Counted from the stretch's first letter, positions 22,185 to 57,490 are shown. The stretch is 64,000 nt of DNA from Gammaproteobacteria bacterium (GCA_021773835.1 JAJFJQ010000060.1:8540-72539), one strand, 5' to 3'. Notes: a model not told the origin generated them from the sequence alone. Program-made: numbers and translations.

Positions 22185-22511
22185 CTAATTCAACTTGTTA
22201 CGCAGAAACCCCAGCGGTCGGATCTGCAGGTCGCCTTCCGGGATCAGCTTGCACGCGAGGGCGATCCCATTTCTTTCATCTTCTTCGCTGACCTGGGCGC
22301 GGCTCATTTTCGTGGTTCGATACTTGCCGTCGTCGAGCACCTGCACGCGGCAGATACCACAACCGCCGCCGCGGCAGCCCACTGGGATCCCTTTGCGACC
22401 CAGTCGCTCCATCGCGAGCAGAACATTCTGCCCTTCTTTGCACAAAAAGCTATCCCCACTATCGGAAATAGTGATTTCGAAGCGCCTCGCTTGCTCAATT
22501 TCGTCACTCAA
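22185..22511 (-). CDS. dmpQ: Plant-type [2Fe-2S] ferredoxin of the XylT/DmpQ type (reactivator of catechol 2,3-dioxygenase)
   Basis: 108 aa with CRGGGCGICRV...C. Lies between the phenol hydroxylase reductase and catechol 2,3-dioxygenase genes, as in dmp/xyl operons. Confidence 0.85.
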   Translation of the reverse strand: MSDEIEQARRFEITISDSGDSFLCKEGQNVLLAMERLGRKGIPVGCRGGGCGICRVQVLDDGKYRTTKMSRAQVSEEDERNGIALACKLIPEGDLQIRPLGFLRNKLN

Positions 22512-23572
22512 AATTTCTTGAACAAAGCGCTCCGGCGTGCGGGCTCGGCGCCATCGGCAGCGGTCAGAAACGACTCCATGAAGATATGTTCTTCGAATAA
22601 ACGTCCTTGCATCAAGGTTGTAATGCAGGCGTCTATCATCGGCGGCGGTCCACAGAGATAGGCCTTATGGCCGGCGAAGTTACCGCCGAAATACGCCGCC
22701 GCAAGCTCATGCACGAAGCCACGCGGCCCATCCCAGGAGTCATCTTCGGCGGCATCCGATAGTGCGGCACGGTAGGTAAAATTCGCGTGGTCCGCCGCCA
22801 GGCCCGAGAATAGATCATAGTAATAGAGTTCCGCACGATTACGTGCACCATAGAGTAACGTGATTTCGCGTGAGTCACCGGCCTCGAGCAAATCCAATAT
22901 CATCGATTTCGGACTCGATAATCCAGACCCGCCGGCGAGAAACATGACCGGCTCCGGCGCCGATTTGCGCACAAAGAATCGTCCAAGCGGTGCCGTGAAG
23001 CTTAGCCGGTCACCGATAGCCAACTGACTATGAAGAAATCCCGTCGCCTCGCCGCCGTCAACCAGACGAATATTGAGTTCGATCGAATTGGCTTGTGACG
23101 GCGCACTCGCGATGGAGAATGCCCGCGGATGCTCCACACCGTCGATCGACAAGTTGATGTATTGCCCTGCTTGAAACGCCACGCCGTCACCTTCGACGTC
23201 AAGCCAGATCCCCTTGATGGTTGGCGTGAGTGCTTCGATACGCGCAACGACGCCCACCGAATCCTCGACGGCGTAACCCGCAGCATCGGGTTCCTCGTCG
23301 ATCTCGGCCTCGATAACCAGATCGGATTCTAAGGTCGCGCAACACGCAAGCGTCTTGTTCTCGTCACGCTCGATATCCATCAGCGCAAATGAAGAAGCAT
23401 GATTGTGCTCGACCTCTCCCTCAAGCACCTCGACCTTGCAGGTGCCACATAGGCCATGGTTACAGGCGTAGGGTAGCCAGATCCCAGCACGCAACGCCGC
23501 ATCGAGGATCGTCTGCCCCTCCTCCACCTCTATCGTGTCGCCGAGCGGTTCAATGGTGACCTGGTAGCTCAT
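22508..23572 (-). CDS. dmpP: Phenol hydroxylase reductase component ([2Fe-2S] ferredoxin plus FAD/NAD-binding domains)
   Basis: 354 aa. N-terminal CNHGLCGTCKV...C; FNR-like motifs RAFSIAS, GGSGLSS and CGPPPM. Confidence 0.9.
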   Translation of the reverse strand: MSYQVTIEPLGDTIEVEEGQTILDAALRAGIWLPYACNHGLCGTCKVEVLEGEVEHNHASSFALMDIERDENKTLACCATLESDLVIEAEIDEEPDAAGYAVEDSVGVVARIEALTPTIKGIWLDVEGDGVAFQAGQYINLSIDGVEHPRAFSIASAPSQANSIELNIRLVDGGEATGFLHSQLAIGDRLSFTAPLGRFFVRKSAPEPVMFLAGGSGLSSPKSMILDLLEAGDSREITLLYGARNRAELYYYDLFSGLAADHANFTYRAALSDAAEDDSWDGPRGFVHELAAAYFGGNFAGHKAYLCGPPPMIDACITTLMQGRLFEEHIFMESFLTAADGAEPARRSALFKKF

Positions 23573-27157: not shown

Positions 27158-27173
27158 AGCAGAATCCGTGCCA
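27158..27173 (-). promoter_or_regulatory. Sigma54 (-24/-12) promoter of the phenol hydroxylase operon
   Basis: Minus-strand sequence TGGCACGGATTCTGCT against the consensus TGGCACG-N4-TTGCW: 11 of 12 conserved positions, GG and GC invariant. Lies 38-53 nt upstream of the dmpK ATG. Confidence 0.65.
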
Positions 27174-27573: not shown

Positions 27574-27600
27574 ACCAACCTGAAGCGGGCGCGCGAGAAT

Positions 27601-31013: not shown

Positions 31014-31016
31014 GGG

Positions 31017-31901: not shown

Positions 31902-32140
31902 GGGTACTTCTCCTGTGTTTTTGTTTGATGATTCGCAACACAACATCAACACAGGGGGAGCCCATACCCCAAAATTAACCTAGAAGAAAAAAACCAGCGC
32001 GGCCTCAACAATACCGCGAGAGCGGTTTAGTACATCGAACCTAAACGGCCTGTAAGCAATTGCTAATATACAGGTTGTAGAGCAACGCACGGAGCGGTTG
32101 CCGACGGTTGCTATCGTCGCGTCAAAATCGGGGTCGGAGT

Positions 32141-37130: not shown

Positions 37131-37514
37131 ATGAAACATTTCGCCGTTCAACCTAAGGGGCACGCCGTTCCAGTAATGCCTTATTCCCCCGCGGTCGTGG
37201 CTGACGGGGTCGTCTACGTCGCGGGCCTGGTCTCTATCGACGAAGAAAACCGGCTCGTTGGCGCTGATGATATCGGCGCACAAACGCGACAATTATTGAC
37301 CAATATGTCGCGATTATTGGAGGCCGCCGGCAGTTCGATGCGATCGGTGCTGAAGACCACCGTCTACCTCCCGAATCGGGATCACTATGTCGAGATGAAT
37401 GCGGTCTACGCAGAGTTCTTCTCAGATCCCCTACCAGCGCGCGCGACGCTACGGGTCGATCTCATCAATCCAAAATACCTAGTGGAAATCGACGCCTACG
37501 CACTTGTCGAATAA
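37131..37514 (+). CDS. RidA-family protein (YjgF/TdcF/RutC-like), with the catalytic Arg context PARATL present
   Basis: ATG at 37131 with a GGAGG RBS. 127 aa; chorismate-mutase-like fold signature. Confidence 0.8.
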   Translation: MKHFAVQPKGHAVPVMPYSPAVVADGVVYVAGLVSIDEENRLVGADDIGAQTRQLLTNMSRLLEAAGSSMRSVLKTTVYLPNRDHYVEMNAVYAEFFSDPLPARATLRVDLINPKYLVEIDAYALVE

Positions 37515-37520
37515 GCCTGA

Positions 37521-38391
37521 GATGAATTCACACACCGCCAATGTAGCGCCAGGTGAAATCGACTGGGAGGGCCAGTTTAACCCACGCGTAGCGGTGCCAA
37601 ACTTCGATCAGATAATGGATGAACGAAAACGGGCGTCAGCCCAGATCCGACAGCGCCGACCATGCCTTAGTGGCCTGCGTTATGGCGAGGCGGAACGCTC
37701 GACCCTGGACGCGTTCCCAGCAAAATCAGCAACGGCGACCCTGGTCTACATTCACGGTGGCTATTGGCGTTCGGGGCAGGCGCAGGACAATAGCGCGATC
37801 GCAGAGCATTTCTGCGCCGCCGGCGCGGCCGTATTTTTACCCAACTACTCACTGTGCCCGGACGCAACAGTCCCGCAAATCGTTGACCAAATTGCTCAGG
37901 CAATTGCTTGGGTCAAGACAGCCGGATGCGATTATGGCGCAAACCCAGATGCGCTATACCTCTGCGGCACCTCAGCCGGCGCGCATCTTGCCGCAATGCT
38001 GTTGGCATCGAATTCAGGCATCGCAGGCGCTTGTCTCATCAGCGGCATCTACGATCTCGCGCCCGTGCTCAAGGTGTCCGTCAACGCCGAAATCGGTTTA
38101 AACGAAGAAACTGCCGAGCGAATGAGTCCAATGGTCCATCCGCCAGCGGGTCATCCGCGATTGATAATGGCTGTTGGTGGGCTGGAGCCACCATTGTGGG
38201 TTCGGCAGACCCATGACTATGCGATCCAGTGTGAAGCGCGCGGGCTAGAATGTGACGTGCTGGAAATTCCGGATGCCAACCATTTTTCCGTCGTCGAAGC
38301 CTTGTATCGCGGCTCGGCACCGATTGCAGCGGCGATGACAGATGCCATGCGATTAACAGACCATCTGCCGCTGGACGAAACATTAATATGA
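37521..38391 (+). CDS. Alpha/beta hydrolase, esterase / arylformamidase-like (HGGYW ... GTSAGAHL)
   Basis: Motifs HGGYW and the nucleophile elbow G-T-S-A-G. Start uncertain: the first ATG is 37521, and the track calls a non-ATG start at 37504. Confidence 0.7.
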
Positions 38392-43026: not shown

Positions 43027-44736
43027 CTATCTCGAAGCGCTCTGGTGCGCGTCCACTCCAGTGTGCCGCTTCGAATTAGCGTCGGTCGTTCCTTCCTCCT
43101 TGAAAGCAAACCCGGCGTACCCCTGCGCTACAACATCGGCGCAGATGCCCCGGTACTTTGGCGCACCGCCGACATAAACCATACAACACCGAGGCTTACC
43201 CGGGATGTTCGTGCCCATGTAGTACGATTCCGCTGCGGGCACAATGGTCTTGTCCGCTTCTTCCTTCGTGTGGACGACCCACTTGCGTTCCGCATCGAGT
43301 TCGGGGTCACACGTTTCAAGCCCATGCTCACGCATGTAGGCAATCAGATCCGTGGCAAAATCAACGTGATCTTCGATTGCACTCGGCATGTTGTACCAAA
43401 CCGAAGGGCTTTGCGGACCCGTGATAATGAACAGGTTAGGAAACCCGTGGGAGGCGAAGCCCAAATAAGTTTGCGGGCCTGCTCGCCACTTATCCTGGAT
43501 CGTTTGACCGCCTCGACCACGCACATCGATGTTCATGAGCGGCCCGCTCATGGCGTCGAAACCGATGGCCATAATAATGGCGTCGACCTCGAACTCGCGA
43601 TCTTGCGTTCTCAACCCGTTCGCGGTCGCTTCTATAATCGGTGTCTTCTTAGCGTCGATAAGCTCGACATTGTCGCGGTTAAAAGTTTCATAGTAATTCG
43701 TCTCACACGGCACGCGTTTCGCGCCGTATGGATGAGACGTCGGAGTCAATATGTCTGCAACCTTCGGATCATTGACCCGTTCCCGGATCTTACGGCGAAC
43801 GAACTCCGAGACAAACTTGTTCGCTTCCAGGTCCGTCAGCACATCCAGATAACTACCGTACGGAAGACGAAAGCTGCCGCCCGCGTAACGCTCTTCGAAA
43901 ACCTGTTCTCGGTCCTCCTCGGAATCAGCGAATACAGACGGGCGGATCTCGAACTCCAGCTCGTAGGGAATGCCGGCATAGGTTTCGCGCGAATATCGCC
44001 GCAGTTCTGGGTACTTCGCTTTGATGGCCGCAGATTCCTCCGGGTCGATCGGGCGATTCTGCAATGGCGTTGCGTAGTTCGCCGTTCGCTGAAAGACAGT
44101 CAGACGCGCAGCCTGCTCCGCAATCAGCGGGATCGCTTGAATGGCGCTTGCGCCCGTACCCACAATCGCGACCCGTTTGTCGGTGAAATCGACCGGCTCA
44201 TGGGGCCACCGGCTAGTCGAATACACCTCGCCCGTAAAATCCGAAAGGCCTGGGAAGTTCGGCTCTTGGGGCAACGACAGGTTGCCGAGTCCGGAGATCA
44301 GAAACTGTGCTTCCACACATTTACCGTCACTCGTCTCAATCTTCCAGCGTCTGATGTCCTCGTCAAAAATAGCAGCGTTCACACGCGTATTGCACTGGAT
44401 ATCCCGTCGCAGGTCGAAGCGATCAGCGACATGGTTAAGGTAGCGTAGTATCTCTGGCTGATCTGAGAATTGTTCCTTCCACGTCCACTCTCGCTGCAGA
44501 TCCTCGTCAAATGAATAGGAATACCAATAGCTCTCGATATCGCAACGCGCCCCCGGATAACGGTTCCAGTACCAAGTGCCGCCGACGTCTTCGGCCGCAT
44601 CAAATGCCCGGACCTTGAGGCCCAGGTCGTCGCGCAGACGATGAAGCGTGTAGAGACCCGAAAAGCCTGCGCCGATGATGACGGCGTCAAAGTTTTCGTG
44701 CGCCGTATTGCTAGCTGTCGCACCCATCCTTTTCAC
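43027..44736 (-). CDS. Type I Baeyer-Villiger (flavin-containing) monooxygenase
   Basis: 569 aa. FAD fold GAGFSG, motif GGTWYWNRYPGARCD, second Rossmann GTGASA. Fingerprint reads FTGEVYSTSRWP (Ser at the usual His position). Confidence 0.85.
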   Translation of the reverse strand: MKRMGATASNTAHENFDAVIIGAGFSGLYTLHRLRDDLGLKVRAFDAAEDVGGTWYWNRYPGARCDIESYWYSYSFDEDLQREWTWKEQFSDQPEILRYLNHVADRFDLRRDIQCNTRVNAAIFDEDIRRWKIETSDGKCVEAQFLISGLGNLSLPQEPNFPGLSDFTGEVYSTSRWPHEPVDFTDKRVAIVGTGASAIQAIPLIAEQAARLTVFQRTANYATPLQNRPIDPEESAAIKAKYPELRRYSRETYAGIPYELEFEIRPSVFADSEEDREQVFEERYAGGSFRLPYGSYLDVLTDLEANKFVSEFVRRKIRERVNDPKVADILTPTSHPYGAKRVPCETNYYETFNRDNVELIDAKKTPIIEATANGLRTQDREFEVDAIIMAIGFDAMSGPLMNIDVRGRGGQTIQDKWRAGPQTYLGFASHGFPNLFIITGPQSPSVWYNMPSAIEDHVDFATDLIAYMREHGLETCDPELDAERKWVVHTKEEADKTIVPAAESYYMGTNIPGKPRCCMVYVGGAPKYRGICADVVAQGYAGFAFKEEGTTDANSKRHTGVDAHQSASR

Positions 44737-46484: not shown

Positions 46485-47267
46485 CTAGAGTAAGCCCGTA
46501 ACGAAGCAAAGCGCGGTAAGCAACAACCCGATACCGATGAGATGTCGCCAGATACGCGGCCACGGCAACAATTTTTCGATTGTAACGAGCACTGCAACCG
46601 CTGCTACCCAGCGCAGATCCATCACCGCAACGGCGAACAGTAGGCCCATCAGCGCCGCGCAACAGCCGACACAAAATAGCCCGTGACGCAGACCCATGAC
46701 CACAGCGCCTAGGGTACCGTCACGCCATTCGGTCAGCACGAAACCCATCGGCGTGCGGCAGCGGTTCAAGCAAACATCTTTCAAGGGCGTCCATTGATAC
46801 AGGCCGGCTGCAGCGAACAGCACTGCAGAGAGCATTGGAGAAGCGGATTCCATCATTGGTGTCAGCCAGCCAAGGGATTCAAATACCCAGTGCAAGGCCG
46901 TGGCCGCGACGCTGAATAGTGACCAGGCCACGAGATACCCAAAGAGAAATACCGAGGTTCCCACATGCGCATCCCCGGCATCGCGTCGACGCCGATTGAT
47001 GGTTGCGAAAGCCGTGATCATAGGACTTGCGGCGGGCACCATCATTGCGATCATCATCACGACCCACATCAAGTAGACCATGCCAAAGTCTGCAATGCGC
47101 CACGGTGATGTCGATTGCATGCCGGTCATCGCGCCCATGTCCGCCATGCTGCTCGCCTGCCAGGCCATGAACATCCAGGCGAGGACGCAAACTGTACTGA
47201 GACCTAGCCCAATGACGAACCGATCCAGTGGGCTCAAACCGACACGAGCGTCGAGCGGGAAGTTCAT
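46485..47267 (-). CDS. DUF2182-family predicted metal-binding integral membrane protein
   Basis: 260 aa, 6-7 TMS with conserved Met/His/Cys-rich segments. Sits 20 nt downstream of the DUF1326 gene. Confidence 0.65.
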   Translation of the reverse strand: MNFPLDARVGLSPLDRFVIGLGLSTVCVLAWMFMAWQASSMADMGAMTGMQSTSPWRIADFGMVYLMWVVMMIAMMVPAASPMITAFATINRRRRDAGDAHVGTSVFLFGYLVAWSLFSVAATALHWVFESLGWLTPMMESASPMLSAVLFAAAGLYQWTPLKDVCLNRCRTPMGFVLTEWRDGTLGAVVMGLRHGLFCVGCCAALMGLLFAVAVMDLRWVAAVAVLVTIEKLLPWPRIWRHLIGIGLLLTALCFVTGLL

Positions 47268-47287
47268 CGTATCCGCCCAATAAAAAG

Positions 47288-47972
47288 TTAATTGAGCGGC
47301 TTACGCCAAGTGAAGGCTTCCGGTCCGCGTGTGTCGAAGGGGATCCACTTAGCCGAGCGATCAGTCCAATCCCAATTGCGACCGAAGGCACCGGTCACGA
47401 CATTGCGTAATGCACGCCCAAGCGTAATAAAGCCAGGGGTCATTTCTGGGCGCGGCGCGTTGTAGATCCGGCACGTATCGTCCTCCGGCACCATGTACAT
47501 CCGGTGCGGCCCACCGAGACCTTCGACCAAGCCCGGCACCTCGACTTTCCATTGTTCTGCGTTGTGGGAGATGTGCATCGGAACGAATTCAACCCCGTCA
47601 ACCTTGATGGTCAGATCCGCCCACGCCTTAAACGCACCACCAGCCTTGCCCGTGAAAATGATCTCAAGCGCTTCACGTTGCGCCGGGTTGGCACGCTCGT
47701 CGATTAGAAAACCGAACTCACGGTTTTTCTTGAACACACTGCCTTCGTAATGGGCGATTAAGATCACCCCCAATTCGCCGTCTAGTGAGACGTCACCGTA
47801 GTGCCCTTCTCGGATCAACCAGGTCAGTACACCCTCGCAGTAGCCAAGCGTCGGTTCAGAGCCAAACACGCATGGGCAGCCGATCGCACAATTGCAGAGG
47901 TCCCACCAATCACCCTTCATACGCCATTGGGTAGCCTCGGACTTGTCGGTGTTTGCGGTTTCGGTCGCCATT
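47288..47972 (-). CDS. DUF1326-family protein with Cys cluster CNCAIGCPC
   Basis: Start MATETANT at 47972. About 228 aa. Typical partner of DUF2182. Confidence 0.65.
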
Positions 47973-48020
47973 AAGGTCTCCTTGGGAATATGCGGGGCCG
48001 GAAACGGCCGCTCGTTACAG

Positions 48021-49019
48021 TCACCCGCTGATACCAAGTTCGACTCGGTAAGATGCTGCGCCCTGCTTCGCCACCGCGACAAGATCTTTATCGTCCGCTA
48101 GTTCTGCGCAATACACCTCTATCGCCGTCTCTACCAAGGGCACCCATTTCTGTACATGTCGAGCGATCGCTTGCGCGTTTTCTTCGCTTTCCCCGGTGCA
48201 AAACTCAACGAAGGCTCGCGTCCACCGCCTAGAGCGTTCCGTGTCCAACCACTGCGCATCGTTCATCAACGCCAGTAGTTCATCATCATTGCGCCGCGCG
48301 ACCTGCTCAAGTTGTCGCAGGCAACATTGATCAACCCCAGGCTTAATCACGACATTCATTGCAATCAGCGCTTCGCCCCAATCGAACGTCGTGAGCACCC
48401 GCTCGACGGCCTCGCGAAATCCCTGCCAGGCTGGATCGTCTTCCCAAATACTTCGTTCGTTCTGACCAAACCCTACATCCGGCCAGGCGCGCTTGAGTTC
48501 CGCCGTGCGATATGCCGTGCGCGAAAGCCAGCGCAAAGCATCGCCGCCCTGAAAGCCGAGGCAATTTACGATGGTGCTCGCCGGTGCCATCATCGCGACG
48601 TAACCGGCCCACATTTGCTGGGCGTGGAGGATATATCTGCACGGCGTATAGAATCGTTGAAGCTGTGCAATCCATGACGGATCCAGCCGTTTGTCGTGTT
48701 CGATCCGACTATATTCTGCCAACAGACCGTCGACATAAGACTCCTGGTGATCCTGCGATGCAACGTAACTCCGATACGTGATTCGTTCCGGATCGGTAAA
48801 GCTATCCCATTCGCGATGCTGCAATGAAGCGTCACGCCGATAGCGTCGAAACCACTCGTTCATCGGTATATCTGGATCCAACTCCAGAGCGGCGTCTGGC
48901 TGGCGCGTATTGTAGATGCCGCGCCGAGCAACGATGTCATATTCGCTCGGTCGTTTCTTCTTCTCGTGAAGGTGGCTCCACGTTTTAAGCGGTCGCATTG
49001 TTGGCGGTTTACTCGACAT
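48021..49019 (-). CDS. Soluble diiron monooxygenase beta subunit (TmoE/TouE/TbuA2-like)
   Basis: 332 aa beta-subunit family. Downstream of the effector gene. Confidence 0.8.
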   Translation of the reverse strand: MSSKPPTMRPLKTWSHLHEKKKRPSEYDIVARRGIYNTRQPDAALELDPDIPMNEWFRRYRRDASLQHREWDSFTDPERITYRSYVASQDHQESYVDGLLAEYSRIEHDKRLDPSWIAQLQRFYTPCRYILHAQQMWAGYVAMMAPASTIVNCLGFQGGDALRWLSRTAYRTAELKRAWPDVGFGQNERSIWEDDPAWQGFREAVERVLTTFDWGEALIAMNVVIKPGVDQCCLRQLEQVARRNDDELLALMNDAQWLDTERSRRWTRAFVEFCTGESEENAQAIARHVQKWVPLVETAIEVYCAELADDKDLVAVAKQGAASYRVELGISG

Positions 49020-49038
49020 AGCTCGGCCTTAAGATCCG

Positions 49039-49401
49039 TTACGACTGTTTGGTCGGCGTCGGGTTGGAATCGCCGTGCTCTCTGTGCATCTTCGCGGACA
49101 CATCTTCCGAAAGATAAAACCTGAAATATTCGGGCGTCGTCTCAACTCTGCCGGCAAACGACGTCAGCACGACACCTAACTCCTGCATGGAAAACGGCCG
49201 TCCTATGAGGTCCTCTACGGTAGCGCGTTGGATCCAGCATTCGCGCTGTATTTCAATCCTGATATACCCGCCGTTATCTTCGATGTTGATTTCTTTGTCG
49301 GGGTTGTCGATTTCTACCGCCTCGGCAACAACGCTGGCGATGTCACCGCTGCGCAAGACCGGCCCTACTGCATCTCCCATCTGCTCGCTAGCACTCACCA
49401 T
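49039..49401 (-). CDS. Monooxygenase effector/coupling protein (TmoD/MmoB family)
   Basis: Motifs GPVLRSGD, EIDNPDKEI, GRPFSMQEL match TmoD-type effectors. Confidence 0.75.
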   Translation of the reverse strand: MVSASEQMGDAVGPVLRSGDIASVVAEAVEIDNPDKEINIEDNGGYIRIEIQRECWIQRATVEDLIGRPFSMQELGVVLTSFAGRVETTPEYFRFYLSEDVSAKMHREHGDSNPTPTKQS

Positions 49402-49443
49402 TGGCCTGGCTTACAGCTATTGTTGAGAATCGCTCGTGCGAGT

Positions 49444-49701
49444 CTATTCGTAGACAATGTCGATGCTCTCATTCACTTCCCAGCCAAGTTCCCCAACCGT
49501 TGCGGTGCGCGACAATAATTCGTCGGTCGCGTGAAGGCGCACCCTGAGAATGCGATCGAATTTCGGCTGGACCCTGATCCCGACGGTTACTTTCGCCGCC
49601 GTTGCGGCCACTTCATCCATCGTTTGCGTAGGGGCAACGTCAAGCACCTGCACGACACCGTCGTCTTCGAACAGAAACATTATAGGCAGTGTCGTGACCA
49701 T
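49444..49701 (-). CDS. Monooxygenase gamma subunit (TmoB-like)
   Basis: 85 aa, positioned after the alpha subunit gene. TmoB-like pattern (FEDDGVVQVL..VD). Confidence 0.7.
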   Translation of the reverse strand: MVTTLPIMFLFEDDGVVQVLDVAPTQTMDEVAATAAKVTVGIRVQPKFDRILRVRLHATDELLSRTATVGELGWEVNESIDIVYE

Positions 49702-49716
49702 GAAACGTAACCCGCG

Positions 49717-51216
49717 CTAGCCGCCTGATGCGACCTCGTCCGCTGGTGGCGTCACCCAACTATAGTCATGCGCGTCAACGCCCCGCTGTTCAGGCGGCAG
49801 TCCCATGTAGTGCAAAAACCCATCGATCGTCGCCGGCTGGATCACACCGTTATAGAGGCGATCGACTACGCTACGATGTCCTGCAATTCGTGCCGGGTCG
49901 ACATCGAAGATCCATTTGCACGGGCGACTGCAGAAGATGTAGCGGCGACCTTCATGATGGGTCCAGTAGTTGCGGTAGGAGATCCCTCTATTTGGCGTAC
50001 CAAGCATCGTGATCGCACATGTATTACAGATCGCCGGCACCGTCTGCGGCTGGGTAAGCTCCTCGTGGCCGGCGACAATATTTTGCTCCATCACATCCCA
50101 AGATTTGCCGAAAGTGTCGTTCCACCCTGGATATTTTTCCTCCAACCATTCGCGCTCCGCGGGCGATACACCGGCCGTCGGATTCCAGAACTGCGCAGCG
50201 CGCCAGAACCAGAATGCCAGGTGCGTGGCATGCGAAACAGTGTCTAGCGATTCAGTAAATTCCTCCCAAAACCACGGCAGGTTAAGACCCAGGTCCAATA
50301 ACTTGCGCTCGAATTGTTGCGCCACAAACTCTCGCGCAAACTCCTTGAACGACTTCTCGCGCGCTTCTAACGGCGTGTAGTAGTCGACGGTTGGGCCACC
50401 GACCGTCGCAAACAACCGCCACTGCCGCCACCAAGCGATATCGACAAGCTGCTGCGCCTGTTCATTGTTCCCATTCTCCAAAAGAACTTTAAGCACCGCA
50501 TTGCCGATTTGAGCATGGCGTGTCTCGTCCGTTTGAATGTTTGAGATCAAGTTTGCAAAATTGTAGTCGCCCGCCCTGTGTGCCTCCGCCGACAGACCAA
50601 GAAATTGGAGATTGGTGAGACCCTCTTCGGTCGCAAACGTCAGCATGATGCCGATAGAGGCGGCATCTCGTCCAAGCTCGACGTCGTCCAGGTTTGCACG
50701 TGCAGCGATCGCAGCCCAGTGGTTGCTGTGGTACATCTTCTGGGCCCAGTCAAAGCGAGAATCTTTGCTAATGTTCTCGTGGGCAAAGTACAGCTGCATC
50801 TGCGTATGCCGGATCTCATCGAGTAAGCCGAAGGTCGCCATGTTGCGCATCCCCGGCGCCTTACCAAAACGCAACATCTTTGCTTCGGCTAGTCCGGCGC
50901 CAAGCTCGCCGATAGTAATACTGGCATAGTGGAGCAACATGCTCGTGCGCCAACCTGGATCTGATTCGTCGAAAAATCGTGACCGCGTGAGCGCGGCACG
51001 CACGGAATAGGCGTCATCGTCCTTCTTGTGTTGGACCTCGACGTATTCACGGTAGGTGATCTTGTAGGGCTCGTCGAATCGTTCCCAATTCTCGCGCGGC
51101 ACGCCAAAACTGTCCGCCATCTCATCCGGAAACAGCTCGTCTTCAGCGACATAGCGAGGTGTCCAATTGGTGTCCCTGGCAATGTCGTACCATTCAGATG
51201 AATCCAATCGTTCCAT
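49717..51216 (-). CDS. Toluene/alkene-type soluble diiron monooxygenase alpha subunit (TmoA/TouA/TbuA1-like)
   Basis: 499 aa. Diiron ligands (DEIRH; TDETRH), and a C-terminal Cys-rich region (CNTCAI...CSRPC). Confidence 0.9.
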   Translation of the reverse strand: MERLDSSEWYDIARDTNWTPRYVAEDELFPDEMADSFGVPRENWERFDEPYKITYREYVEVQHKKDDDAYSVRAALTRSRFFDESDPGWRTSMLLHYASITIGELGAGLAEAKMLRFGKAPGMRNMATFGLLDEIRHTQMQLYFAHENISKDSRFDWAQKMYHSNHWAAIAARANLDDVELGRDAASIGIMLTFATEEGLTNLQFLGLSAEAHRAGDYNFANLISNIQTDETRHAQIGNAVLKVLLENGNNEQAQQLVDIAWWRQWRLFATVGGPTVDYYTPLEAREKSFKEFAREFVAQQFERKLLDLGLNLPWFWEEFTESLDTVSHATHLAFWFWRAAQFWNPTAGVSPAEREWLEEKYPGWNDTFGKSWDVMEQNIVAGHEELTQPQTVPAICNTCAITMLGTPNRGISYRNYWTHHEGRRYIFCSRPCKWIFDVDPARIAGHRSVVDRLYNGVIQPATIDGFLHYMGLPPEQRGVDAHDYSWVTPPADEVASGG

Positions 51217-51257
51217 GGCTTCCTCCTTTCGTTCGGCGGTCGCGCTTCGGGTAAGGT

Positions 51258-51572
51258 TTAGTCGTTACCTAAGTCCACGTACACCTCATCACCATCGACC
51301 CGGACCGGAAACAATGCAAGCAAGGTGTTCTCCGGATTAATCCCCATCCCACTCATCAAGTCGAAGCGCCAGCGGTGTGCCTTACAGGTTAACACCTGGC
51401 CGTCGAGCTCCCCATCTACCAGGGGCTGTTCCTGATGTGGGCAACTCGGCGGGATAGCCCGCACCTCCCCACCCTCTAAGTGGATCACCAGCACCTCACG
51501 GCCGTTGACTTGGAAAACGGCCATCTCGCCTTCCCACAGATCGTCGGTATTGCATACATGTTGAAAAGCCAT
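51258..51572 (-). CDS. Rieske [2Fe-2S] ferredoxin (TmoC-like)
   Basis: 104 aa. Motifs CPH...CKAHRW. Confidence 0.85.
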   Translation of the reverse strand: MAFQHVCNTDDLWEGEMAVFQVNGREVLVIHLEGGEVRAIPPSCPHQEQPLVDGELDGQVLTCKAHRWRFDLMSGMGINPENTLLALFPVRVDGDEVYVDLGND

Positions 51573-51698
51573 TGGATGCTGATTCTACCGAGTGTATAGA
51601 GGTCGAAGCATGTCCAAATCCGAGAGTACTTCGAGTATAGAGAGGCCATCGGACAGGCGTCAATCGGGGCTTCGCTCCACCGCTGCCGTTCCCGCAAG

Positions 51699-52205
51699 CT
51701 AACAAGCGGAATTCGCGACCAAGTCCCAGGCGAAGGTGAAATTTTCCACTTTGGCGCCACCTGCCCCGTCGTTTGGATCACCCGAACTGTGATGGTAGAC
51801 CTCGTATTTTATTTTGCCAAAATTCAAAATCAGCCTTTCGCGAAAAAAATTCTCTTCCGCCTCCCCGTCTGTGCGCATCGCCGTGATACGAACGTCTTCC
51901 ATAATGATTGATTGATACTTCAGCAAGGCTTCACGCTTCCCGACCACTGGAATGACGCTGATTTCAACCAGCTTGATCGGCGTTTGCTCAACGAACGACC
52001 GTATCAATGCAGCACTTTCCTTGCCGATCGGTTTCAATATCGTGATCTGATTCATGCTGCCGCACGGCTGGCCGTCCGCAATCTGCTCCTCAGATGTGCG
52101 TTCGAGATTCCAATTCCATGACAGCATGTCCGCCCAACCCTTGTGTTGATAGTTGCGCGTGCCGCCATCGATCCCGTCTATTTTCAAAAACATTTCTAAC
52201 GCCAT
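51699..52205 (-). CDS. hcp: Type VI secretion system tube protein Hcp (TssD), orphan
   Basis: 168 aa. N-terminus MALEMFLKIDGIDGGTRNYQHKGWADMLSWNW and C-terminus ...LILNFGKIKYEVY...G match Hcp1-family signatures. AGGAGAGAGG RBS. Confidence 0.8.
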   Translation of the reverse strand: MALEMFLKIDGIDGGTRNYQHKGWADMLSWNWNLERTSEEQIADGQPCGSMNQITILKPIGKESAALIRSFVEQTPIKLVEISVIPVVGKREALLKYQSIIMEDVRITAMRTDGEAEENFFRERLILNFGKIKYEVYHHSSGDPNDGAGGAKVENFTFAWDLVANSAC

Positions 52206-52681
52206 TTACCTCTCTCCTGCTGCGGATGGACCGAAGTTGCTCACGGATGAGCCAGCGACCCATCCAAATCGATGGCCGTAACATGGATTCGATTGGTCAC
52301 GACGACGGTCAGCGAGCTTGGGTGTAGCAGCCAAGCTCAGTATCAAAAAATGCTCCACGACGTACCGATTTCACGTCGCGTCAATGGGCTTTGGGGGAAA
52401 CGCCTCGATTGTTCAGGCTGAGGTTGTAACCGACATTGCGTACATCTGAGATACGCAGTGGAGACCGCGTAACCTACCGCCCAGGCTACGTTATTTTGAC
52501 TTCAATTGCAGGTACTAAATTGCATAACGCGTGAATCTGTTTTCGAAACACACGGCCAATTCGAGTTGGGCCATCGACAATCCAGCGTCGCAACCAGATC
52601 TGACGCAGGCTCGAATATTTACCTGACTAGATCGAAATTGATACGATCTGGCGCCGTATTCAATTACGAGGAGGTCCCTCA

Positions 52682-53423
52682 GATGAGTCGTTGGAAAGCG
52701 TCAGGTATTCACTTTCTAATCAGCTTGTTTATAGCCATTGCAGCAATTGCGATCGTCATCCTGGTGATGTATCCCCCTCCCTACACCGGGAGTGCCGGCG
52801 CGGGCCGCTTGCTCGTTATTTTAATCAGCGTTGATGTAACGCTCGGGCCCTTGATCACTCTGATCATATTTAAGCAGGGCAAACCTGGGCTCAAATTCGA
52901 TTTGAGCGTGATCGCGATGCTGCAAGTCGCCGCACTCGGTTATGGCCTAATAATCATTGGTCAAGCACGGCCAGTGTTTCTCGCGTTTGTCGAAGACCGG
53001 TTTGCACTCGTTCATGCCAACGCCATCAAAGACGACGCAATTGCCCAAGCGTCCGCACCGTACAACCGCAAATCCTGGACTGGACCGGTGCTGGTCGGCA
53101 CGCAGTTGTCCGGTGATATTGACGCTCATAATGATGTGCTGATGTCCGCGATGGAGGGCGGGCCCGACATCGACTCGATGCCCCAATACTATGTTCCATA
53201 TGAGCAACAAAAAGAGAAAGTATTAGCACAGGCTAAGCCGCTTAAGGATCTGCGAAGCTGGAGCGAAAACGCAGATACCCTGGTGGCGACCTGGCTAGAG
53301 CGCAAACAAACATCCGCTGAGGACTTTCTTTATCTACCGCTACAGGTCAGGACCGGATTTCATACGTTAGTGCTAAATCAAAATGTCGAGCCGATCGATG
53401 TGTTGCCAGTTGACCCCTGGTGA
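52682..53423 (+). CDS. Membrane protein, possibly a TfpX/TfpZ-family type IV pilin accessory protein (tentative)
   Basis: ATG at 52682 with a GAGGAGG RBS. Three N-terminal TMS. The family assignment rests on remembered motifs, not a search. Confidence 0.4.
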
Positions 53424-53522: not shown

Positions 53523-56500
53523 CTAGGGTCTGCCGTAATCCACCTTCCGTTCAGCCGTGATATACCCATCCAGCAGGTCGGCGTCGATCTCGGCATCGGA
53601 ACGTTCCGCCGGATCACCATAGCCGCCTCCACCTGGCGCATGCATGAGCAGTTGATCTCCTAGCTGCATTCGGATGTTGACGAATTTGGTCGGACTCACG
53701 GTCCCAAAAGCCTCAGTGAAGGTTTTGAACTCGGTAGTTCCGGCGAATCGGACAAATATGCCGGCCGGTCCACCGGATATTCCACCTTGAAACCCCCATG
53801 GACCTTCCTGGGTACGATCGAGCAACGCACTTACGGTGACCTCCGGAGCCGTGACTTCAAACAAGCGGCGCACGCCTAAGCCACCGCGCCATTTTCCTGC
53901 ACCACCAGAGTCCGGACGTAAGGCATATTCCACGGTACGCATGGGGTAACGGGTTTCGAATACCTCGATCGGCGTTGCGCGAATGGTACTGCCGTGGGCG
54001 ATACACTGCGCACTATTGCCATCCTTACCCAGACGGCCACCCCAGCCACCACCGTCAAGCTGGTAGTGAGTGTAATAATCACCGGTATCCGGGTGCGCGC
54101 CGCCGATCAGGATATTACACGCCGTGCCGCCCTCCGCAGCACTAATGCGATCAGGGATCGCTTTGGCCAGCGCTCCTTGCACGGCGGAGATGATGCGCGG
54201 CTGACCTTCGGTGTTGCCGGCCACGCACGGTGCGGGAAAAACCGGGTTCGCAACCGTGCCCGGAGGTGCAACAACTTTAATCGGTTTAAAACAACCGCTA
54301 TTTAGCGGTACGTCGCGCGCACCGATCGATTGCAGTACCGCGGTACTACCTGCTGCGGCCGTGGCGACATAGCTGACATTGATCGGGCCGCGGGCTTGTG
54401 GGTCAGATTCCGATAAATCGACGACGATGTCGTCATCGTGGATGTGAACGGCAGCGCGAAAGTAGTACGGTTTTGCCTCGACCCCATCATCCTCGAAATA
54501 ATCTTCGAATTTATAGATCCCGTTCGGGAGCTTCTTGATTTCGCTACGCATCCATTTCTCAGCGTGGTCGATAAGGTTATCGGTGATCTGCTCGAACAAT
54601 TCCAAACCGAGCTTACCAACGACCTCTTGCAGGCGACGTTCGGCCGTGGTTAATGATCCCAGCAATGCATGGAAATCACCCCATGTCGTATCCGGAGTGC
54701 GATGGTTTGCCATGACGATGCGCCACACATCCTTAACGTACTCACCACGCGACATGATCTTAACTGGCGGCAACCGCAATCCTTCTTGAAAAATCTCCGT
54801 CGCGGTGCTCGCAAACGAACCGACAGCCATACCACCGATCTCAGCGATATGCGCGATATTGGCGGCATATCCAATGACCTTGCCATCCAAAAACACAGGC
54901 TTCATAAACATATGCTCAGGCATGTGGCACTGCCCGCGGTAGGGATCGTTATGCACGATCACATCCCCTGGCTCGAAACTATCCTCACCAAGTTCCTCCA
55001 CGCACAAGGGGATTGTATGCAGTCCTGCGCATATGATTGCCGGATTCATCTCCGCCTGACCAACCATCCTAAGCTTGCGATCAAAAAGGATGCAGCTAAA
55101 GTCTCGCGACTCACTGAATATTGGTGAATGTGCTGTACGCACCATCGCGCTAGCCATCTCATCGCAAATATTTTTCAGCGCGTTGTTTATAACCGTTAAT
55201 GTCACCGGATCATCTGCTACATTCTGCGCCACGGTGTTGTCGCGTCGCTCGACATTTGTCGGCACATCCACCACGAGACTACCGTCCGCTTGAACCTCAA
55301 AGGCACCGCCGGGCGGAATCAACGTCGTTGAGTCGGTTTCCTCAACCAAGGCCGGACCGCTGATGCGAGTGCCGACAGCGAGCTGGTCTCGCCGGTGCAC
55401 CGGCGTGTCGATCTCACCGATATCGGCAAAGTGAATCGTGCGCGATGAGTTAGGGTCGAGTGTGCCTTCGCTCACCCCCGACAGCGTGACCTCAGCGCCC
55501 TCCTCACCCAGGCCGATCATTCGCACTTCGGTGATCTCGACGACTTTGTCTTCAAACGAATAACCGTACAGTGCTTCGTGTTGTTGGTGCAGTCGCGCTA
55601 GCCCACGCGCAAAAGCAGCATCGTCCAGTGGTAATGTGTCGAGCGCCACGATTTCGCCGAAGTTCTGCCCGAGATAACGCATATTGAGATAACCGGTGAT
55701 ACGCGCCGCCCCTTCCAGGCCGTCACGCTTGAGCTCGGCGACGGATTCTTCACTCAGTTCGCGTAATTGCTGATTCAGCAACTCGAGGTCCAGCTGGTCG
55801 GAGCGATGCATCACTGTACGCGCGCGATCAACACGCAATTCAGTCAATAAGGTACCCAGTGCCGATAACAAGCCCGGGTTCGGCGGGACTATGACGTGCT
55901 GCATACCGAGGTGGGCGGCAACGTCAACCGCATGTAACGGCCCCGCGCCGCCAAACGCTATCAAGGCAAAATCCCGATGGTCGATACCTCGGTCTACTGT
56001 CATAAGGCGGATCGCGTCGGCCATGTTTTCTGCCGCAGTACCCAGTATGGCGAGCGCAGTTTCATTTTCGTTTAGTCCAATTTGTTTGCCTAAGGCTGCA
56101 ACCGCTGCGTGTGCAGCAGCGGCATCGAGGCTGACTTCCCCGCCAAGGAAAAATTTCGGATCCAAACGCCCGAGAACTACATTCGCGTCTGTTACCGTGG
56201 GCTCAGTCCCGCCCTTGCCATAACAGGCAGGACCGGGCTCAGCACCTGCGCTGCGCGGACCTACTCGTAGTAGACCACCGGAATCAACATAGGCGATGGA
56301 ACCACCACCGGCCCCGATCGTGGTGTAGTCAATAAACAAAGAACTGACCGGTACACCCCATTCGATTTCGTATTCGGTGGTCGAGCCGAACTCCCCGTCG
56401 CTAATCAAGCCGACATCACAGCTGGTACCACCCATGTCGAGGGTCACCGCATTGCCGCCGGCGTGGTCCCGGGCGAAGCGCCGCCCTGCTATCACGCCAC

Positions 56501-57299
56501 CCGCAAGACCCGACAACAGTAGTTGGACCGGTATCTCACCAGCCGTAGCCGATTGCACGTGCCCACCGTTCGATTTCATCAGTGCTAATGGTGCTGTAAC
56601 CGACATGTCCTGAAGTGCACCGGCCAGACCGTCGACGAAGCGTTCAATGATGTGTTTGATGAACGCATCGGTGATAGTCGTCGTAGAGCGTTCATATTCG
56701 CGCCAGATCGGCGAGACGCGATGCGATAAGGAAACCGGGGTATGCGGAAATCGCTCAGTCAAATACTCACCGACAGCGATCTCATGTGCGGGATTGACGT
56801 AGGAAAATAATAAATTTACGGCAATCGCCCAGTCTGTATCCGGTGCAGAACTTATCCAGCCCTCGACCCACTCACCAAGCTTCTCGAGGGAAGCTTGATC
56901 GAGCGGCTCGATAACTTTCCCGCGATGGTCGACGCGCTCCAATATCCCATGAGTGTGGCGGCGCATAACCCCAGTGTCGGGTTTTGGCCAAGCAGGATTG
57001 TAGGCCTCGCGCCGATCGATGCGGCCGATGATCGGCACGTCCTCGACCCCTTTGGTACCGACGTATAGGACCGTCGCGCCTTTCTTTTGTAGGCGCGCAT
57101 TGGTCGCAATCGTGGTACCTAAAAGAATACGTTCGATGTCTTTTGGATCAACACCACAACGCGCGATTGCGGCGAGTGGCGCATCAGCCGGTGCAGCTGG
57201 GGTGGATGGGACTTTAATCGTCGAGATACGACCAGTCTGATCATCGAATGCGATGAGATCGGTAAAGGTACCTCCGGTATCAATGCCAAGTCGTATCAT
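53523..57299 (-). CDS. Fused hydantoinase A/B (HyuA-HyuB), 5-oxoprolinase-like single-chain enzyme
   Basis: Start MIRLGIDTGGTFTD at 57299. N-terminal half HyuA-like (ASKHA fold), C-terminal half HyuB-like. 1258 aa. Confidence 0.85.
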   Translation of the reverse strand: MIRLGIDTGGTFTDLIAFDDQTGRISTIKVPSTPAAPADAPLAAIARCGVDPKDIERILLGTTIATNARLQKKGATVLYVGTKGVEDVPIIGRIDRREAYNPAWPKPDTGVMRRHTHGILERVDHRGKVIEPLDQASLEKLGEWVEGWISSAPDTDWAIAVNLLFSYVNPAHEIAVGEYLTERFPHTPVSLSHRVSPIWREYERSTTTITDAFIKHIIERFVDGLAGALQDMSVTAPLALMKSNGGHVQSATAGEIPVQLLLSGLAGGVIAGRRFARDHAGGNAVTLDMGGTSCDVGLISDGEFGSTTEYEIEWGVPVSSLFIDYTTIGAGGGSIAYVDSGGLLRVGPRSAGAEPGPACYGKGGTEPTVTDANVVLGRLDPKFFLGGEVSLDAAAAHAAVAALGKQIGLNENETALAILGTAAENMADAIRLMTVDRGIDHRDFALIAFGGAGPLHAVDVAAHLGMQHVIVPPNPGLLSALGTLLTELRVDRARTVMHRSDQLDLELLNQQLRELSEESVAELKRDGLEGAARITGYLNMRYLGQNFGEIVALDTLPLDDAAFARGLARLHQQHEALYGYSFEDKVVEITEVRMIGLGEEGAEVTLSGVSEGTLDPNSSRTIHFADIGEIDTPVHRRDQLAVGTRISGPALVEETDSTTLIPPGGAFEVQADGSLVVDVPTNVERRDNTVAQNVADDPVTLTVINNALKNICDEMASAMVRTAHSPIFSESRDFSCILFDRKLRMVGQAEMNPAIICAGLHTIPLCVEELGEDSFEPGDVIVHNDPYRGQCHMPEHMFMKPVFLDGKVIGYAANIAHIAEIGGMAVGSFASTATEIFQEGLRLPPVKIMSRGEYVKDVWRIVMANHRTPDTTWGDFHALLGSLTTAERRLQEVVGKLGLELFEQITDNLIDHAEKWMRSEIKKLPNGIYKFEDYFEDDGVEAKPYYFRAAVHIHDDDIVVDLSESDPQARGPINVSYVATAAAGSTAVLQSIGARDVPLNSGCFKPIKVVAPPGTVANPVFPAPCVAGNTEGQPRIISAVQGALAKAIPDRISAAEGGTACNILIGGAHPDTGDYYTHYQLDGGGWGGRLGKDGNSAQCIAHGSTIRATPIEVFETRYPMRTVEYALRPDSGGAGKWRGGLGVRRLFEVTAPEVTVSALLDRTQEGPWGFQGGISGGPAGIFVRFAGTTEFKTFTEAFGTVSPTKFVNIRMQLGDQLLMHAPGGGGYGDPAERSDAEIDADLLDGYITAERKVDYGRP

Positions 57300-57490
57300 T
57301 ACTGTGCCCCCGTTTGCGCGTGATTGATAAGCGATCGTTTCACATCGGCACACGATGCTTCACAAAACTTCTTATCTGGAAACTCGTCGTCTTCCCAATA
57401 GATCCGCGAAATCATGCGACCGCAGAAGAAGCAATTCAGGATCCGCGTTTCGTGCCACGGGATCTCAAGGATGTGTTGTTGACCGGACAT
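57299..57490 (-). CDS. Small CxxC...CxxxC protein (63 aa), translationally coupled (TAATG) to the hydantoinase/oxoprolinase gene
   Basis: GGGGAG RBS 7 nt upstream of the ATG. Stop TAA overlaps the downstream ATG. Contains CFFC and CEASC. Confidence 0.45.
   Translation of the reverse strand: MSGQQHILEIPWHETRILNCFFCGRMISRIYWEDDEFPDKKFCEASCADVKRSLINHAQTGAQ

Follow-up and report, generated by a model that had tools for sequence, protein, structure and literature searches.

Do two genes of the DUF1326 and DUF2182 families, appended to a soluble diiron monooxygenase operon that lacks a reductase gene, support the enzyme or merely travel with it? The locus that raises this question lies in a 64,000-nucleotide stretch of DNA, here called the window, from a Gammaproteobacteria bacterium (GCA_021773835.1 JAJFJQ010000060.1:8540-72539). 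An earlier note, made from the sequence alone, had placed seven genes at positions 46485 to 51572, and all seven were found there on the minus strand with their Pfam families upheld: Rieske ferredoxin, alpha, gamma, effector, beta, DUF1326, and DUF2182 (Table 1).

Layout of the locus

Gaps within the monooxygenase cluster measure 41, 15, 42, and 19 nt, and the DUF1326 and DUF2182 genes follow after 49 and 20 nt, close to the earlier estimates of about 48 and 20 nt. The mechanical DUF1326 ORF begins at TTG 48082, overlapping beta; the start is most likely ATG 47971, as used for the 49-nt gap, since AAGGAG precedes it by 7 nt and homologues start there. No terminator-like or promoter-like sites were found in the gaps around DUF1326 and DUF2182, and the pair is probably co-transcribed with the monooxygenase genes. 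The promoter candidate falls in the 126-nt gap between the Rieske gene and its upstream neighbor, an Hcp gene, where no sigma-54 -24/-12 motif was seen by eye. Downstream, the neighbor is a convergent gene for an HsaA/HpaH-C2-like flavin monooxygenase.

Table 1. Predicted features of the monooxygenase locus and the DmpP-like reductase gene elsewhere in the window
Feature	Coordinates	Strand	Basis
Sigma-70-like promoter candidate (TTGACG, 18 nt, TATACT)	51634..51663	-	Consensus scan, 10/12 matches; prediction
Rieske [2Fe-2S] ferredoxin, T4moC-like, first gene	51258..51572	-	PF00355, E 7.5e-17
Hydroxylase alpha, 499 aa, diiron center and C-terminal YHS domain	49717..51216	-	Phenol_Hydrox, E 1.1e-65; YHS
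Hydroxylase gamma, TmoB-like, 85 aa	49444..49701	-	PF06234 (TmoB), E 2.7e-14
Effector/coupling protein, MmoB/DmpM family, 120 aa	49039..49401	-	PF02406 (MmoB_DmpM), E 2.1e-25
Hydroxylase beta, 332 aa	48021..49019	-	PF02332 (Phenol_Hydrox), E 1.7e-61
DUF1326 protein, DmdF-like, 227 aa from ATG	47288..47971	-	PF07040, E 6.9e-43
DUF2182/PpoB2-family membrane protein, DmdE-like, 260 aa	46485..47267	-	PF09948, E 1.5e-63
DmpP-like NADH:ferredoxin oxidoreductase, phenol-hydroxylase cluster, outside operon	22508..23572	-	Fer2 + FAD_binding_6 + NAD_binding_1

A TMO-group monooxygenase operon without a reductase gene

The enzyme is a four-component soluble diiron monooxygenase of the toluene-monooxygenase (TMO) group; its class is not in doubt, and the composition of its operon alone is non-canonical. 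Alpha aligned end to end with the solved structures of ToMO TouA (1t0q, E 3.9e-193) and T4MO TmoA (3dhg, E 6e-185), compared with E values of 1.9e-33 for phenol hydroxylase and 6e-14 for sMMO. In the alignment to 1t0q, E104, E134, H137, E197, T201, E231, and H234 are all conserved, including the diiron motifs E134-x2-H137 and E231-x2-H234, and with these residues intact the hydroxylase looks catalytically competent. The best solved relative of the Rieske protein is T4moC (1sjg, E 2.8e-27), with the CPH...CxAH ligands (Cys-Pro-His, Cys-x-Ala-His) aligned, and the TmoB-like gamma (PF06234), effector (PF02406), and beta (PF02332) all scored above Pfam cut-offs. Alpha is roughly 54 to 56% identical to plasmid-borne TMO alphas of cultured bacteria, and about 41 to 42% identical to the isoprene and alkene (Xanthobacter Py2) enzymes; outside its own small clade, no sequence exceeds 60% identity to it. 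Beta is 72 to 77% identical to the beta subunits of loci L001, L006, and L018. The YHS domain of alpha carries a Cys4 motif (Cys397/400/429/433), which is present in 22 of 22 members of the clade versus 24 of 102 sequences outside it.

The TMO group is reportedly group 2 of Leahy/Notomista. It is named "group 1" in PMC11825192, where the canonical operon begins with alpha and gamma, continues with ferredoxin, coupling protein, and beta, and ends with the reductase; the order here of ferredoxin, alpha, gamma, effector, beta is thus non-canonical, as the earlier note had it. The same note's statement that no reductase gene adjoins the cluster also held: no Fer2/FAD_binding_6/NAD_binding_1 reductase was found flanking it, and none, of the tmoF type or otherwise, lies beside the clusters of the relatives L006, L001, L002, L009, and P0008, so that the earlier note's own condition for refutation, a tmoF-type reductase in relatives, did not apply. 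Since the gene is missing both here and from the relatives' clusters, it is reasonable to infer, as had been suggested, a reductase encoded elsewhere. Among the window's annotated ORFs of at least 150 aa, the sole such reductase is the DmpP-like gene about 23 kb from the cluster, whose product is 30 to 33% identical to the TMO reductases of loci L003 to L005; that it might serve this monooxygenase is pure conjecture.

A neighbor-joining (NJ) tree together with locus comparison indicated that ferredoxin position is variable in the window's clade and that an in-operon reductase is usually missing. Ferredoxin comes first in L002 and L009 and last in L001; P0008 has the canonical order with no reductase, and in L017 ferredoxin and reductase lie 4 kb away. 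The canonical-order loci L003 to L005 fall in a different clade.

Spread of the pair and its capture

We surveyed 80 metagenome loci carrying a DUF1326 gene whose product is 67 to 82% identical to that of the window. DUF2182 lay directly downstream in about three quarters of them, the commonest neighbors of the two genes were M3 peptidases and gamma-glutamyltranspeptidases (GGT), and a monooxygenase beta gene was upstream of DUF1326 at a single locus. The pair is therefore an autonomous, very widespread two-gene unit that is not specific to these monooxygenases, and the earlier idea of a new module for such monooxygenases generally does not stand. The tight linkage itself does: the relatives L018/L019 and L020 each read beta, DUF1326, DUF2182, with DUF2182 orthologues 72 to 74% identical to the window's. 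Gaps in L018 are 16 and 19 nt, and across linked loci they range from 16 to 49 nt. Locus L006 has lost DUF2182 and kept the monooxygenase and DUF1326; DNA homology between it and the window begins at the Rieske gene and breaks off at the last codons of DUF1326, and the flanks are unrelated. At the nine other TMO loci examined, neither gene was present.

The monooxygenase-linked copies are monophyletic, and the pair was therefore captured once. The linkage was kept after capture while the flanks changed, and dN/dS values of 0.05 to 0.13 for both DUF genes, at saturated dS (>1), indicate purifying selection. The association of a monooxygenase with DUF1326-DUF2182 has not been described previously and is confined to one small uncultured lineage. 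In L001, whose alpha is 88% identical to the window's, a DUF1326 gene of another subfamily (38% identical) lies directly beside the cluster. This is a second, independent association with a TMO cluster, and since the gene is convergent, it is not co-transcribed with that cluster.

The two appended proteins

Published names already exist: DmdF/DmdE for the pair (PMC12992908) and PpoB2 for DUF2182 (PMC2855505). The cysteine cluster that the earlier note had seen in DUF1326 is real: C26, C28, C32, C34, and C45 (C-x-C-x3-C-x-C-x10-C) are invariant across two DUF1326 subfamilies. The cysteine-rich protein is cytosolic, and its predicted fold is an acetoacetate-decarboxylase-like beta-cone unlike known peroxidase or metallochaperone folds. 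For DUF2182, the match to PF09948, whose current Pfam name is "PpoB2 copper chaperone," spans profile positions 2 to 186 of 188, and hydropathy gives five to six hydrophobic segments, i.e., multiple transmembrane passes. At ≥90% conservation among 42 sequences, it retains 13 Met, C166-x3-C170, H195, and C199-x2-C202-C203. When the two DUF proteins were scanned against Pfam and NCBIfam, PF07040 and PF09948 alone were returned, with no match to MmoD or DmpK models. H2O2 is consumed by purified DmdF, a DUF1326 protein, and reactive oxygen species are elevated in a dmdF mutant (PMC12992908), while PpoB2 is required for copper transfer to tyrosinase, its operon partner (PMC2855505).

Possible roles of the pair

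Uncoupled diiron monooxygenases release H2O2. The reading we favor, with confidence short of even, is of one operon that joins a complete TMO set without a reductase gene to a captured DmdF/DmdE-type pair as protective or metal-handling support, with the reductase in trans. The operon, from an uncultured gammaproteobacterial lineage, encodes the TMO hydroxylase (alpha, beta, gamma), effector, and Rieske ferredoxin, and since the TMO clade appears to encode its NADH oxidoreductase elsewhere, electrons would most likely reach the Rieske protein via a reductase acting in trans. DUF1326-DUF2182 was inserted once behind beta in the lineage's ancestor and has been co-inherited since under purifying selection. 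A thiophilic metal would pass from the Met/Cys-rich membrane protein to DUF1326, the cysteine-rich protein of the cytosol, and the latter would clear H2O2 or related oxidants from uncoupled turnover of the diiron hydroxylase. By analogy with the characterized homologues, the pair is best read as an accessory module, transcribed together with the operon, that protects or handles metal, and not as a reductase substitute. Several observations count against this. Both genes are missing at all nine other TMO loci, and instead of oxygenases the pair usually has a Zn peptidase (M3) and GGT as neighbors. The DUF1326 gene of L001, being convergent, is not co-transcribed with its cluster. Because L006 lacks DUF2182, the two genes are not needed as a pair. 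The predicted acetoacetate-decarboxylase-like fold is that of neither a known peroxidase nor a known metallochaperone, and the DmdF result concerns a distant alphaproteobacterial homologue, whose gamma- and betaproteobacterial counterparts stand apart in phylogeny (PMC12992908).

Given a single capture event, the conserved linkage could be mere co-inheritance. The pair would then be a passenger that landed beside the operon once, is perhaps read through, and has an unrelated housekeeping job with no role in monooxygenation. The monophyly of linked copies, the dozens of unrelated contexts in which the autonomous pair occurs, its absence from the nine TMO loci, and the loss of DUF2182 in L006 without loss of the monooxygenase are all consistent with such a passenger. 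However, synonymous sites have become saturated and both flanks have been exchanged without the linkage being broken, the gaps are short and hold no terminator, and an independent DUF1326 paralogue sits beside the orthologous cluster in L001, and so we consider a passenger somewhat unlikely. We regard it as unlikely that the pair delivers or inserts a metal into the hydroxylase, whether diiron-site iron or a thiophilic metal bound by the Cys4 motif of the alpha YHS domain, and so fills the place that MmoD or DmpK (PHK) has in other diiron monooxygenase groups. PpoB2, the founding member of the DUF2182 family, passes copper specifically to its operon partner (PMC2855505), TMO operons lack a known assembly factor (PMC11825192), and the conserved Met/Cys/His residues of DUF2182, the DUF1326 cysteine cluster, the Zn metallopeptidase often adjoining the pair, and the Cys4 motif of the clade's alpha would all suit a metallochaperone. 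Yet Met/Cys ligands fit Cu(I) or Zn and not a diiron site of carboxylates and His, all 22 clade members have the Cys4 motif whereas the pair occurs only in the window's subclade, neither protein matches MmoD or DmpK models, the membrane partner is missing in L006, and TMOs are active in E. coli without helpers (PMC11825192). The earlier suggestion of metal supply to the hydroxylase is possible but found no specific support, the sole DUF1326 biochemistry, that of DmdF, pointing to peroxide consumption.

More doubtful still is a portable module that matures or protects metal-dependent enzymes in general and is needed here for full hydroxylase activity or lifetime. Its clients would be the copper enzyme tyrosinase, the zinc-dependent M3 peptidases, the pathway of DMSP demethylation, and here the diiron hydroxylase, and it might act by loading the alpha YHS Cys4 site or by removing peroxide at its source; if true, the TMO group would thereby gain its first known accessory factor. 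We consider it highly improbable that DUF1326, perhaps as an Fe-S protein, and its membrane partner replace the NADH oxidoreductase and feed the Rieske ferredoxin. In favor of this, the operon has no reductase gene and the DUF1326 cysteine motif could in principle hold a cluster, but both proteins lack flavin- and NAD(P)H-binding domains, the fold predicted for DUF1326 is acetoacetate-decarboxylase-like, the reductase-less loci L002, L009, and P0008 also lack the pair, and the pair mostly adjoins non-redox enzymes.

Comparison with known systems

The operon encodes the same components (alpha, TmoB-like gamma, a Rieske protein like T4moC, effector, and beta) as those of the four-component toluene/alkene monooxygenases T4MO (tmoABCDEF) and ToMO (touABCDEF). 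In contrast to both, its ferredoxin gene leads the operon where theirs stands third, it has no tmoF/touF-type reductase gene, and two extra genes follow beta; moreover, the YHS domain of its alpha has the Cys4 motif, whereas TouA lacks the second Cys pair.

Other diiron monooxygenase groups have accessory factors, namely, MmoD, DmpK (PHK), and the GroEL-like MimG/BmoG. Like the extra genes here, these are non-catalytic additions to the operon, and they influence hydroxylase assembly or expression, but in Pfam and NCBIfam scans the window's DUF proteins match none of these families' models.

PpoB2 of Marinomonas mediterranea (COG5486) belongs to the same PF09948 family as the window's DUF2182 and is likewise polytopic in the membrane and furnished with Met/Cys/His motifs. 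It serves the tyrosinase PpoB1, and the window's DUF2182 is similarly encoded behind the oxidase genes it would serve, although the partner here is a diiron and not a copper oxygenase; no tyrosinase or multicopper oxidase gene is adjacent or among the annotated window ORFs.

DmdE/DmdF of Roseobacters (PMC12992908, EMBO J 2026) represent the same two Pfam families, adjacent, co-directional, and appended to a catabolic operon. In the window the order is reversed, with DUF1326 first, and no dmdA, acuI, dmdR, or dinB lies near the pair, nor is there a dmdA/acuI/DmdR link among annotated window ORFs of at least 150 aa. Gamma- and betaproteobacterial DmdE/DmdF homologues form a separate phylogenetic group with no DMSP link, non-Rhodobacterales being set apart (PMC12992908). 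By analogy with DmdF, an H2O2-consuming activity of the window's DUF1326 protein is putative, and oxidant production by the pathway is a plausible link for both pairs.

Operon structure and monooxygenase identity

There is firm support for two conclusions: that the operon is an intact TMO-type (toluene/alkene) soluble diiron monooxygenase system, in a clade whose operons are fluid in architecture and whose reductase is encoded in trans, and that a portable DmdF/DmdE-type pair, DUF1326 and DUF2182, was added to it on a single occasion and has since been retained. The earlier note had described ferredoxin, hydroxylase, and effector genes in noncanonical order, without a reductase and with the two DUF genes closely appended. 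That description proved right in every particular when gene content, order, gaps, and flanks were checked, as coordinates, families, gaps, and flanking genes all match. The seven genes run in one direction, separated by successive gaps of 41, 15, 42, 19, 49, and 20 nt from the Rieske gene to DUF2182. A mechanical ORF call had placed the DUF1326 start at TTG 48082, within beta; this was rejected in favor of ATG 47971, which has AAGGAG 7 nt to its 5′ side and coincides with the start of homologues. A consensus scan of the cluster yielded a sigma-70-like promoter candidate upstream of the Rieske gene only, and inspection by eye revealed no convincing sigma-54 −24/−12 promoter upstream of that gene. 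Both minus-strand terminator-like sites in the cluster lie within coding sequence, with none in its intergenic gaps. Downstream lies a convergent gene for an HsaA/HpaH-C2-like flavin monooxygenase.

Features of the monooxygenase locus, its surroundings, and relatives' loci (window positions unless a relative is named)
Feature	Coordinates	Strand	Family or content
Seven-gene cluster	51572-46485	-	
Promoter candidate	51663-51634		sigma-70-like
Rieske ferredoxin	51572-51258	-	PF00355
Hydroxylase alpha	51216-49717	-	Phenol_Hydrox, C-terminal YHS domain
Gamma	49701-49444	-	TmoB
Effector	49401-49039	-	MmoB/DmpM
Beta	49019-48021	-	Phenol_Hydrox
DUF1326	47971-47288	-	PF07040
DUF2182	47267-46485	-	PF09948, current name "PpoB2 copper chaperone"
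DmpP-like reductase	23572-22508		Fer2/FAD/NAD
Orphan Hcp	51699-52205	-	T6SS tube protein
TfpX/TfpZ-family gene	52506-53423	+	type IV pilin accessory
Fused hydantoinase A/B	53523-57353	-	oxoprolinase-type, 1276 aa
BVMO	43027-44736		Baeyer-Villiger monooxygenase
Esterase	37504-38391		
Catabolic mosaic	909-4998, 20093-29262, 13044-14432, 29853-33365		
L001, DUF1326	13669-14316	-	stand-alone subfamily
L001, substrate-hint genes	8507-9952		
L009, BVMO	16249-17832		
L016, three alphas	1-9757		
L016, substrate-hint genes	5565-6740		
L017, alpha region	3568-13901		

Alpha aligns over its full length with ToMO TouA (1t0q, E 3.9e-193) and T4MO TmoA (3dhg, E 6e-185), with far weaker matches to phenol hydroxylase and sMMO. 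At the sequence level, this assigns the enzyme to the TMO group ("group 1" in a 2025 review [PMC11825192], group 2 of Leahy/Notomista). The alignment to 1t0q shows T201 and the full set of six diiron ligands, and T4moC is the closest solved structure to the Rieske ferredoxin, with the cluster ligands aligned. Alpha is 54 to 56% identical to plasmid-borne TMOs of cultured Paraburkholderia, Cupriavidus, and Marinobacter and ~41 to 42% identical to isoprene and Xanthobacter Py2 alkene enzymes. Close alphas (87 to 88%) were few in a large protein collection, where all others were at most 60% identical. Every TMO alpha match in the plasmid collection was below 60% identity, and near-identical DNA for window 40 to 64 kb was absent from it. 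The contig index held no exact match to the window alpha, a metagenome scan with alpha as the lone query returned no loci, and a genome scan returned only four, one of them close.

Substrates are unknown for most environmental TMO-group sequences (PMC11825192), and gene context in the window and its relatives hints at substrates beyond simple aromatics. The window carries an esterase and a BVMO; the latter shares 53% identity with a BVMO located 3 kb away from the cluster in Panacagrimonas (L009). Among the other inspected loci, an SDR lies directly upstream of the cluster in L001 and P0008, a limonene-epoxide-hydrolase/SnoaL protein occurs in L001, and an epoxide hydrolase occurs in L016.

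Directly upstream of the monooxygenase and on the same strand is an orphan Hcp gene, with a TfpX/TfpZ-family gene divergent from it; no further T6SS or pilus genes were seen near the two. The hydantoinase is situated a short way upstream of the cluster region, and one 30% identical to it lies near the DUF pair of L027, which is probably a coincidence. The window as a whole is a catabolic mosaic of meta-cleavage genes and a dmp-type phenol hydroxylase with a DmpR-like activator, DmpP-like reductase, and catechol 2,3-dioxygenase. The mosaic also holds three transposase/integrase genes (IS91-type, tyrosine recombinase, and DDE) and another DDE transposase.

A clade with fluid operon architecture

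In a neighbor-joining tree of 124 alphas, the window alpha groups with P0001, P0002, and the sequence from L006 (a Gammaproteobacteria MAG), and this group is nested in a larger clade with Nevskia and Panacagrimonas MAG sequences. Operons in L002 (Nevskia) and L009 begin with the ferredoxin and have no reductase, and that in L001 (alpha 88% identical), also without a reductase, carries the ferredoxin last, after beta. P0008 has its ferredoxin at the canonical position and an amidohydrolase in the reductase's place. The canonical order is alpha, gamma, ferredoxin, coupling protein, beta, reductase (PMC11825192), and the canonical six-gene operons L003 to L005 fall in the other major alpha clade. 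The odd gene order and absent reductase are features of the clade. In some relatives, several TMO alpha paralogues occur with an incomplete set of components: in L016, three alphas are spread over 10 kb with one gamma only and no beta or effector nearby, and in L017 a lone alpha adjoins a full alpha-gamma-effector-beta set, and the ferredoxin and reductase lie 4 kb upstream, away from the two alphas, together with a fragment of beta.

Among the window's annotated ORFs of at least 150 aa, the sole Fer2/FAD/NAD reductase is the DmpP-like one, which sits in the dmp-type phenol hydroxylase and meta-cleavage island. Since operons of the clade mostly lack a reductase and this is the only one found among those ORFs, it is sensible to infer that electrons arrive via a trans-acting reductase. 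The original description of T4MO listed tmoABCDE, and the enzyme shows activity in E. coli when tmoF is missing.

The only cysteines of alpha, C397, C400, C429, and C433, form a Cys4 motif (CxxC...CxxxC) in its YHS domain, present in 22 of 22 alphas of the larger clade versus 24 of 102 outside it. ToMO TouA, unlike the window alpha, lacks the second Cys pair. We take the motif to resemble the Zn site reported for phenol hydroxylase alpha.

Origin and distribution of the DUF1326-DUF2182 pair

At the DNA level, the window and L006 are homologous from the start of the Rieske gene through the final codons of DUF1326 (51576-47294) and not beyond; the flanks of L006 are unrelated to the window's, and neither DUF2182 nor a remnant was found there by blastn and low-stringency tblastn. 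Further relatives, L018/L019, carry beta (72% identical), 16 nt, DUF1326 (81%), 19 nt, and DUF2182 (74%), followed by PhyH and luciferase-like genes, and L020 has the same run of beta, DUF1326, and DUF2182. The DUF1326 tree unites these monooxygenase-linked copies in one clade, which branches from within the pair-type copies. Pairwise dN/dS was 0.04 to 0.13 for all scorable genes, including both DUFs, except one short beta fragment in L020 (0.28), and dS exceeded 1; the gene arrangement has therefore outlived synonymous saturation. The linkage in the window's lineage is old and conserved and arose once, and it is restricted to that lineage, which is small and uncultured. HMM scanning of nine other TMO loci detected neither DUF, and in the 64-kb window it gave no further copy of either. 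L001, on a 6.3-Mb contig, has a convergent DUF1326 directly beside its cluster. This protein shares only 38% identity with the window's and is a member of another subfamily, stand-alone and very abundant (2806 homologues at E<=1e-5). Its position may reflect an independent second association or may be fortuitous.

The pair itself is autonomous and widespread. The window DUF1326 has hundreds of relatives (66 to 86% identical) in Alpha-, Beta-, and Gammaproteobacteria, including P0121 to P0124 on short contigs (82 to 86%), and is conserved much more tightly than alpha. Copies 70 to 74% identical are paired with DUF2182 in unrelated surroundings (L010, L013 to L015), and L012 has DUF1326 alone. 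A metagenome scan with the DUF1326 alignment returned 80 loci (67 to 82% identical); DUF2182 lies directly downstream in about three quarters of them, and a monooxygenase beta lies upstream of the pair in only one, L020, the closest. Plasmid-collection matches to DUF1326 were all below 40% identity.

Pfam scans of the pair's 66 immediate neighbors gave Peptidase_M3 (17), gamma-glutamyltranspeptidase (GGT; 6), and otherwise scattered families. The commonest string in soil metagenomes is Peptidase_M3 (~690 aa), DUF1326, DUF2182, and GGT (~540 aa), the genes being tens of nucleotides apart (upstream loci L030, L038, L040, L049, L051, L053, L056, L070, L071, L096, L097, and L099; downstream loci L040, L049, L056, L064, L069, and L098). 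It looks like a conserved operon tying the pair to a Zn peptidase and glutathione turnover.

Possible role of the pair

DUF1326 has five cysteines invariant in both subfamilies (C26-x-C28-x3-C32-x-C34-x10-C45) and a sixth, C167, invariant within the pair-type subfamily. AlphaFold2, with input that included the second subfamily (27 near-identical sequences alone gave a pLDDT of 57), predicts an acetoacetate-decarboxylase-like barrel, a fold typical of enzymes and small-molecule binders; as modeled, it is neither a known peroxidase nor a metallochaperone fold. DUF2182 is a polytopic membrane protein that conserves, at >=90%, 13 Met, C166-x3-C170, H195, and C199-x2-C202-C203, among others, a ligand set typical of Cu(I) or other soft metals. 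PDB sequence searches with both proteins gave no meaningful match, and NCBIfam has no model for either. In the literature, DUF2182 is DmdE and DUF1326 is DmdF, always adjacent and both required for growth on DMSP, and purified DmdF consumes H2O2 (EMBO J 2026, PMC12992908). For the transfer of copper, tyrosinase depends on its operon partner PpoB2, the protein on which PF09948 was founded (PMC2855505).

We favor a protective or metal-handling accessory role, given these published DmdF and PpoB2 activities, the thiol- or oxidant-related neighbors of the pair elsewhere (GGT, GST, and DinB), and the long-kept linkage. In this model, the membrane protein DUF2182 might hand a soft metal to the cysteine-rich cytosolic DUF1326, which could dispose of peroxide from uncoupled hydroxylase turnover, a risk expected to be higher under a noncognate reductase. 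Since there was a single capture and L006 has dropped DUF2182, the idea that the pair is simply a passenger beside the monooxygenase is a serious rival to this role, if a somewhat doubtful one. The earlier note proposed that the pair may supply or insert metal for the hydroxylase, which we consider unlikely: Met/Cys ligand chemistry is ill suited to a diiron site bridged by carboxylates, and many more alphas have the Cys4 site than have the pair beside them. That the pair substitutes for the reductase is very unlikely and was rejected, as neither protein contains a flavin or NAD domain and the pair is likewise missing from reductase-less relatives.

TMO-type monooxygenases matter greatly for the breakdown of hydrocarbons and pollutants and as biocatalysts, and this locus documents a clade in which fluid operon architecture and a reductase in trans are joined by an extra Cys4 site in alpha. 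Because TMOs express well in E. coli (PMC11825192), the effect of the pair should be easy to test there, and if it improves coupling or stability, it would be useful for heterologous expression of diiron monooxygenases. The same review presents the canonical TMO operon only, and our literature search found no published link of either DUF to a diiron monooxygenase. This new partner sharpens the question of what a very abundant pair does: after tyrosinase and the DMSP demethylation operon, a diiron oxygenase is the third genetic partner of DUF1326 and DUF2182.
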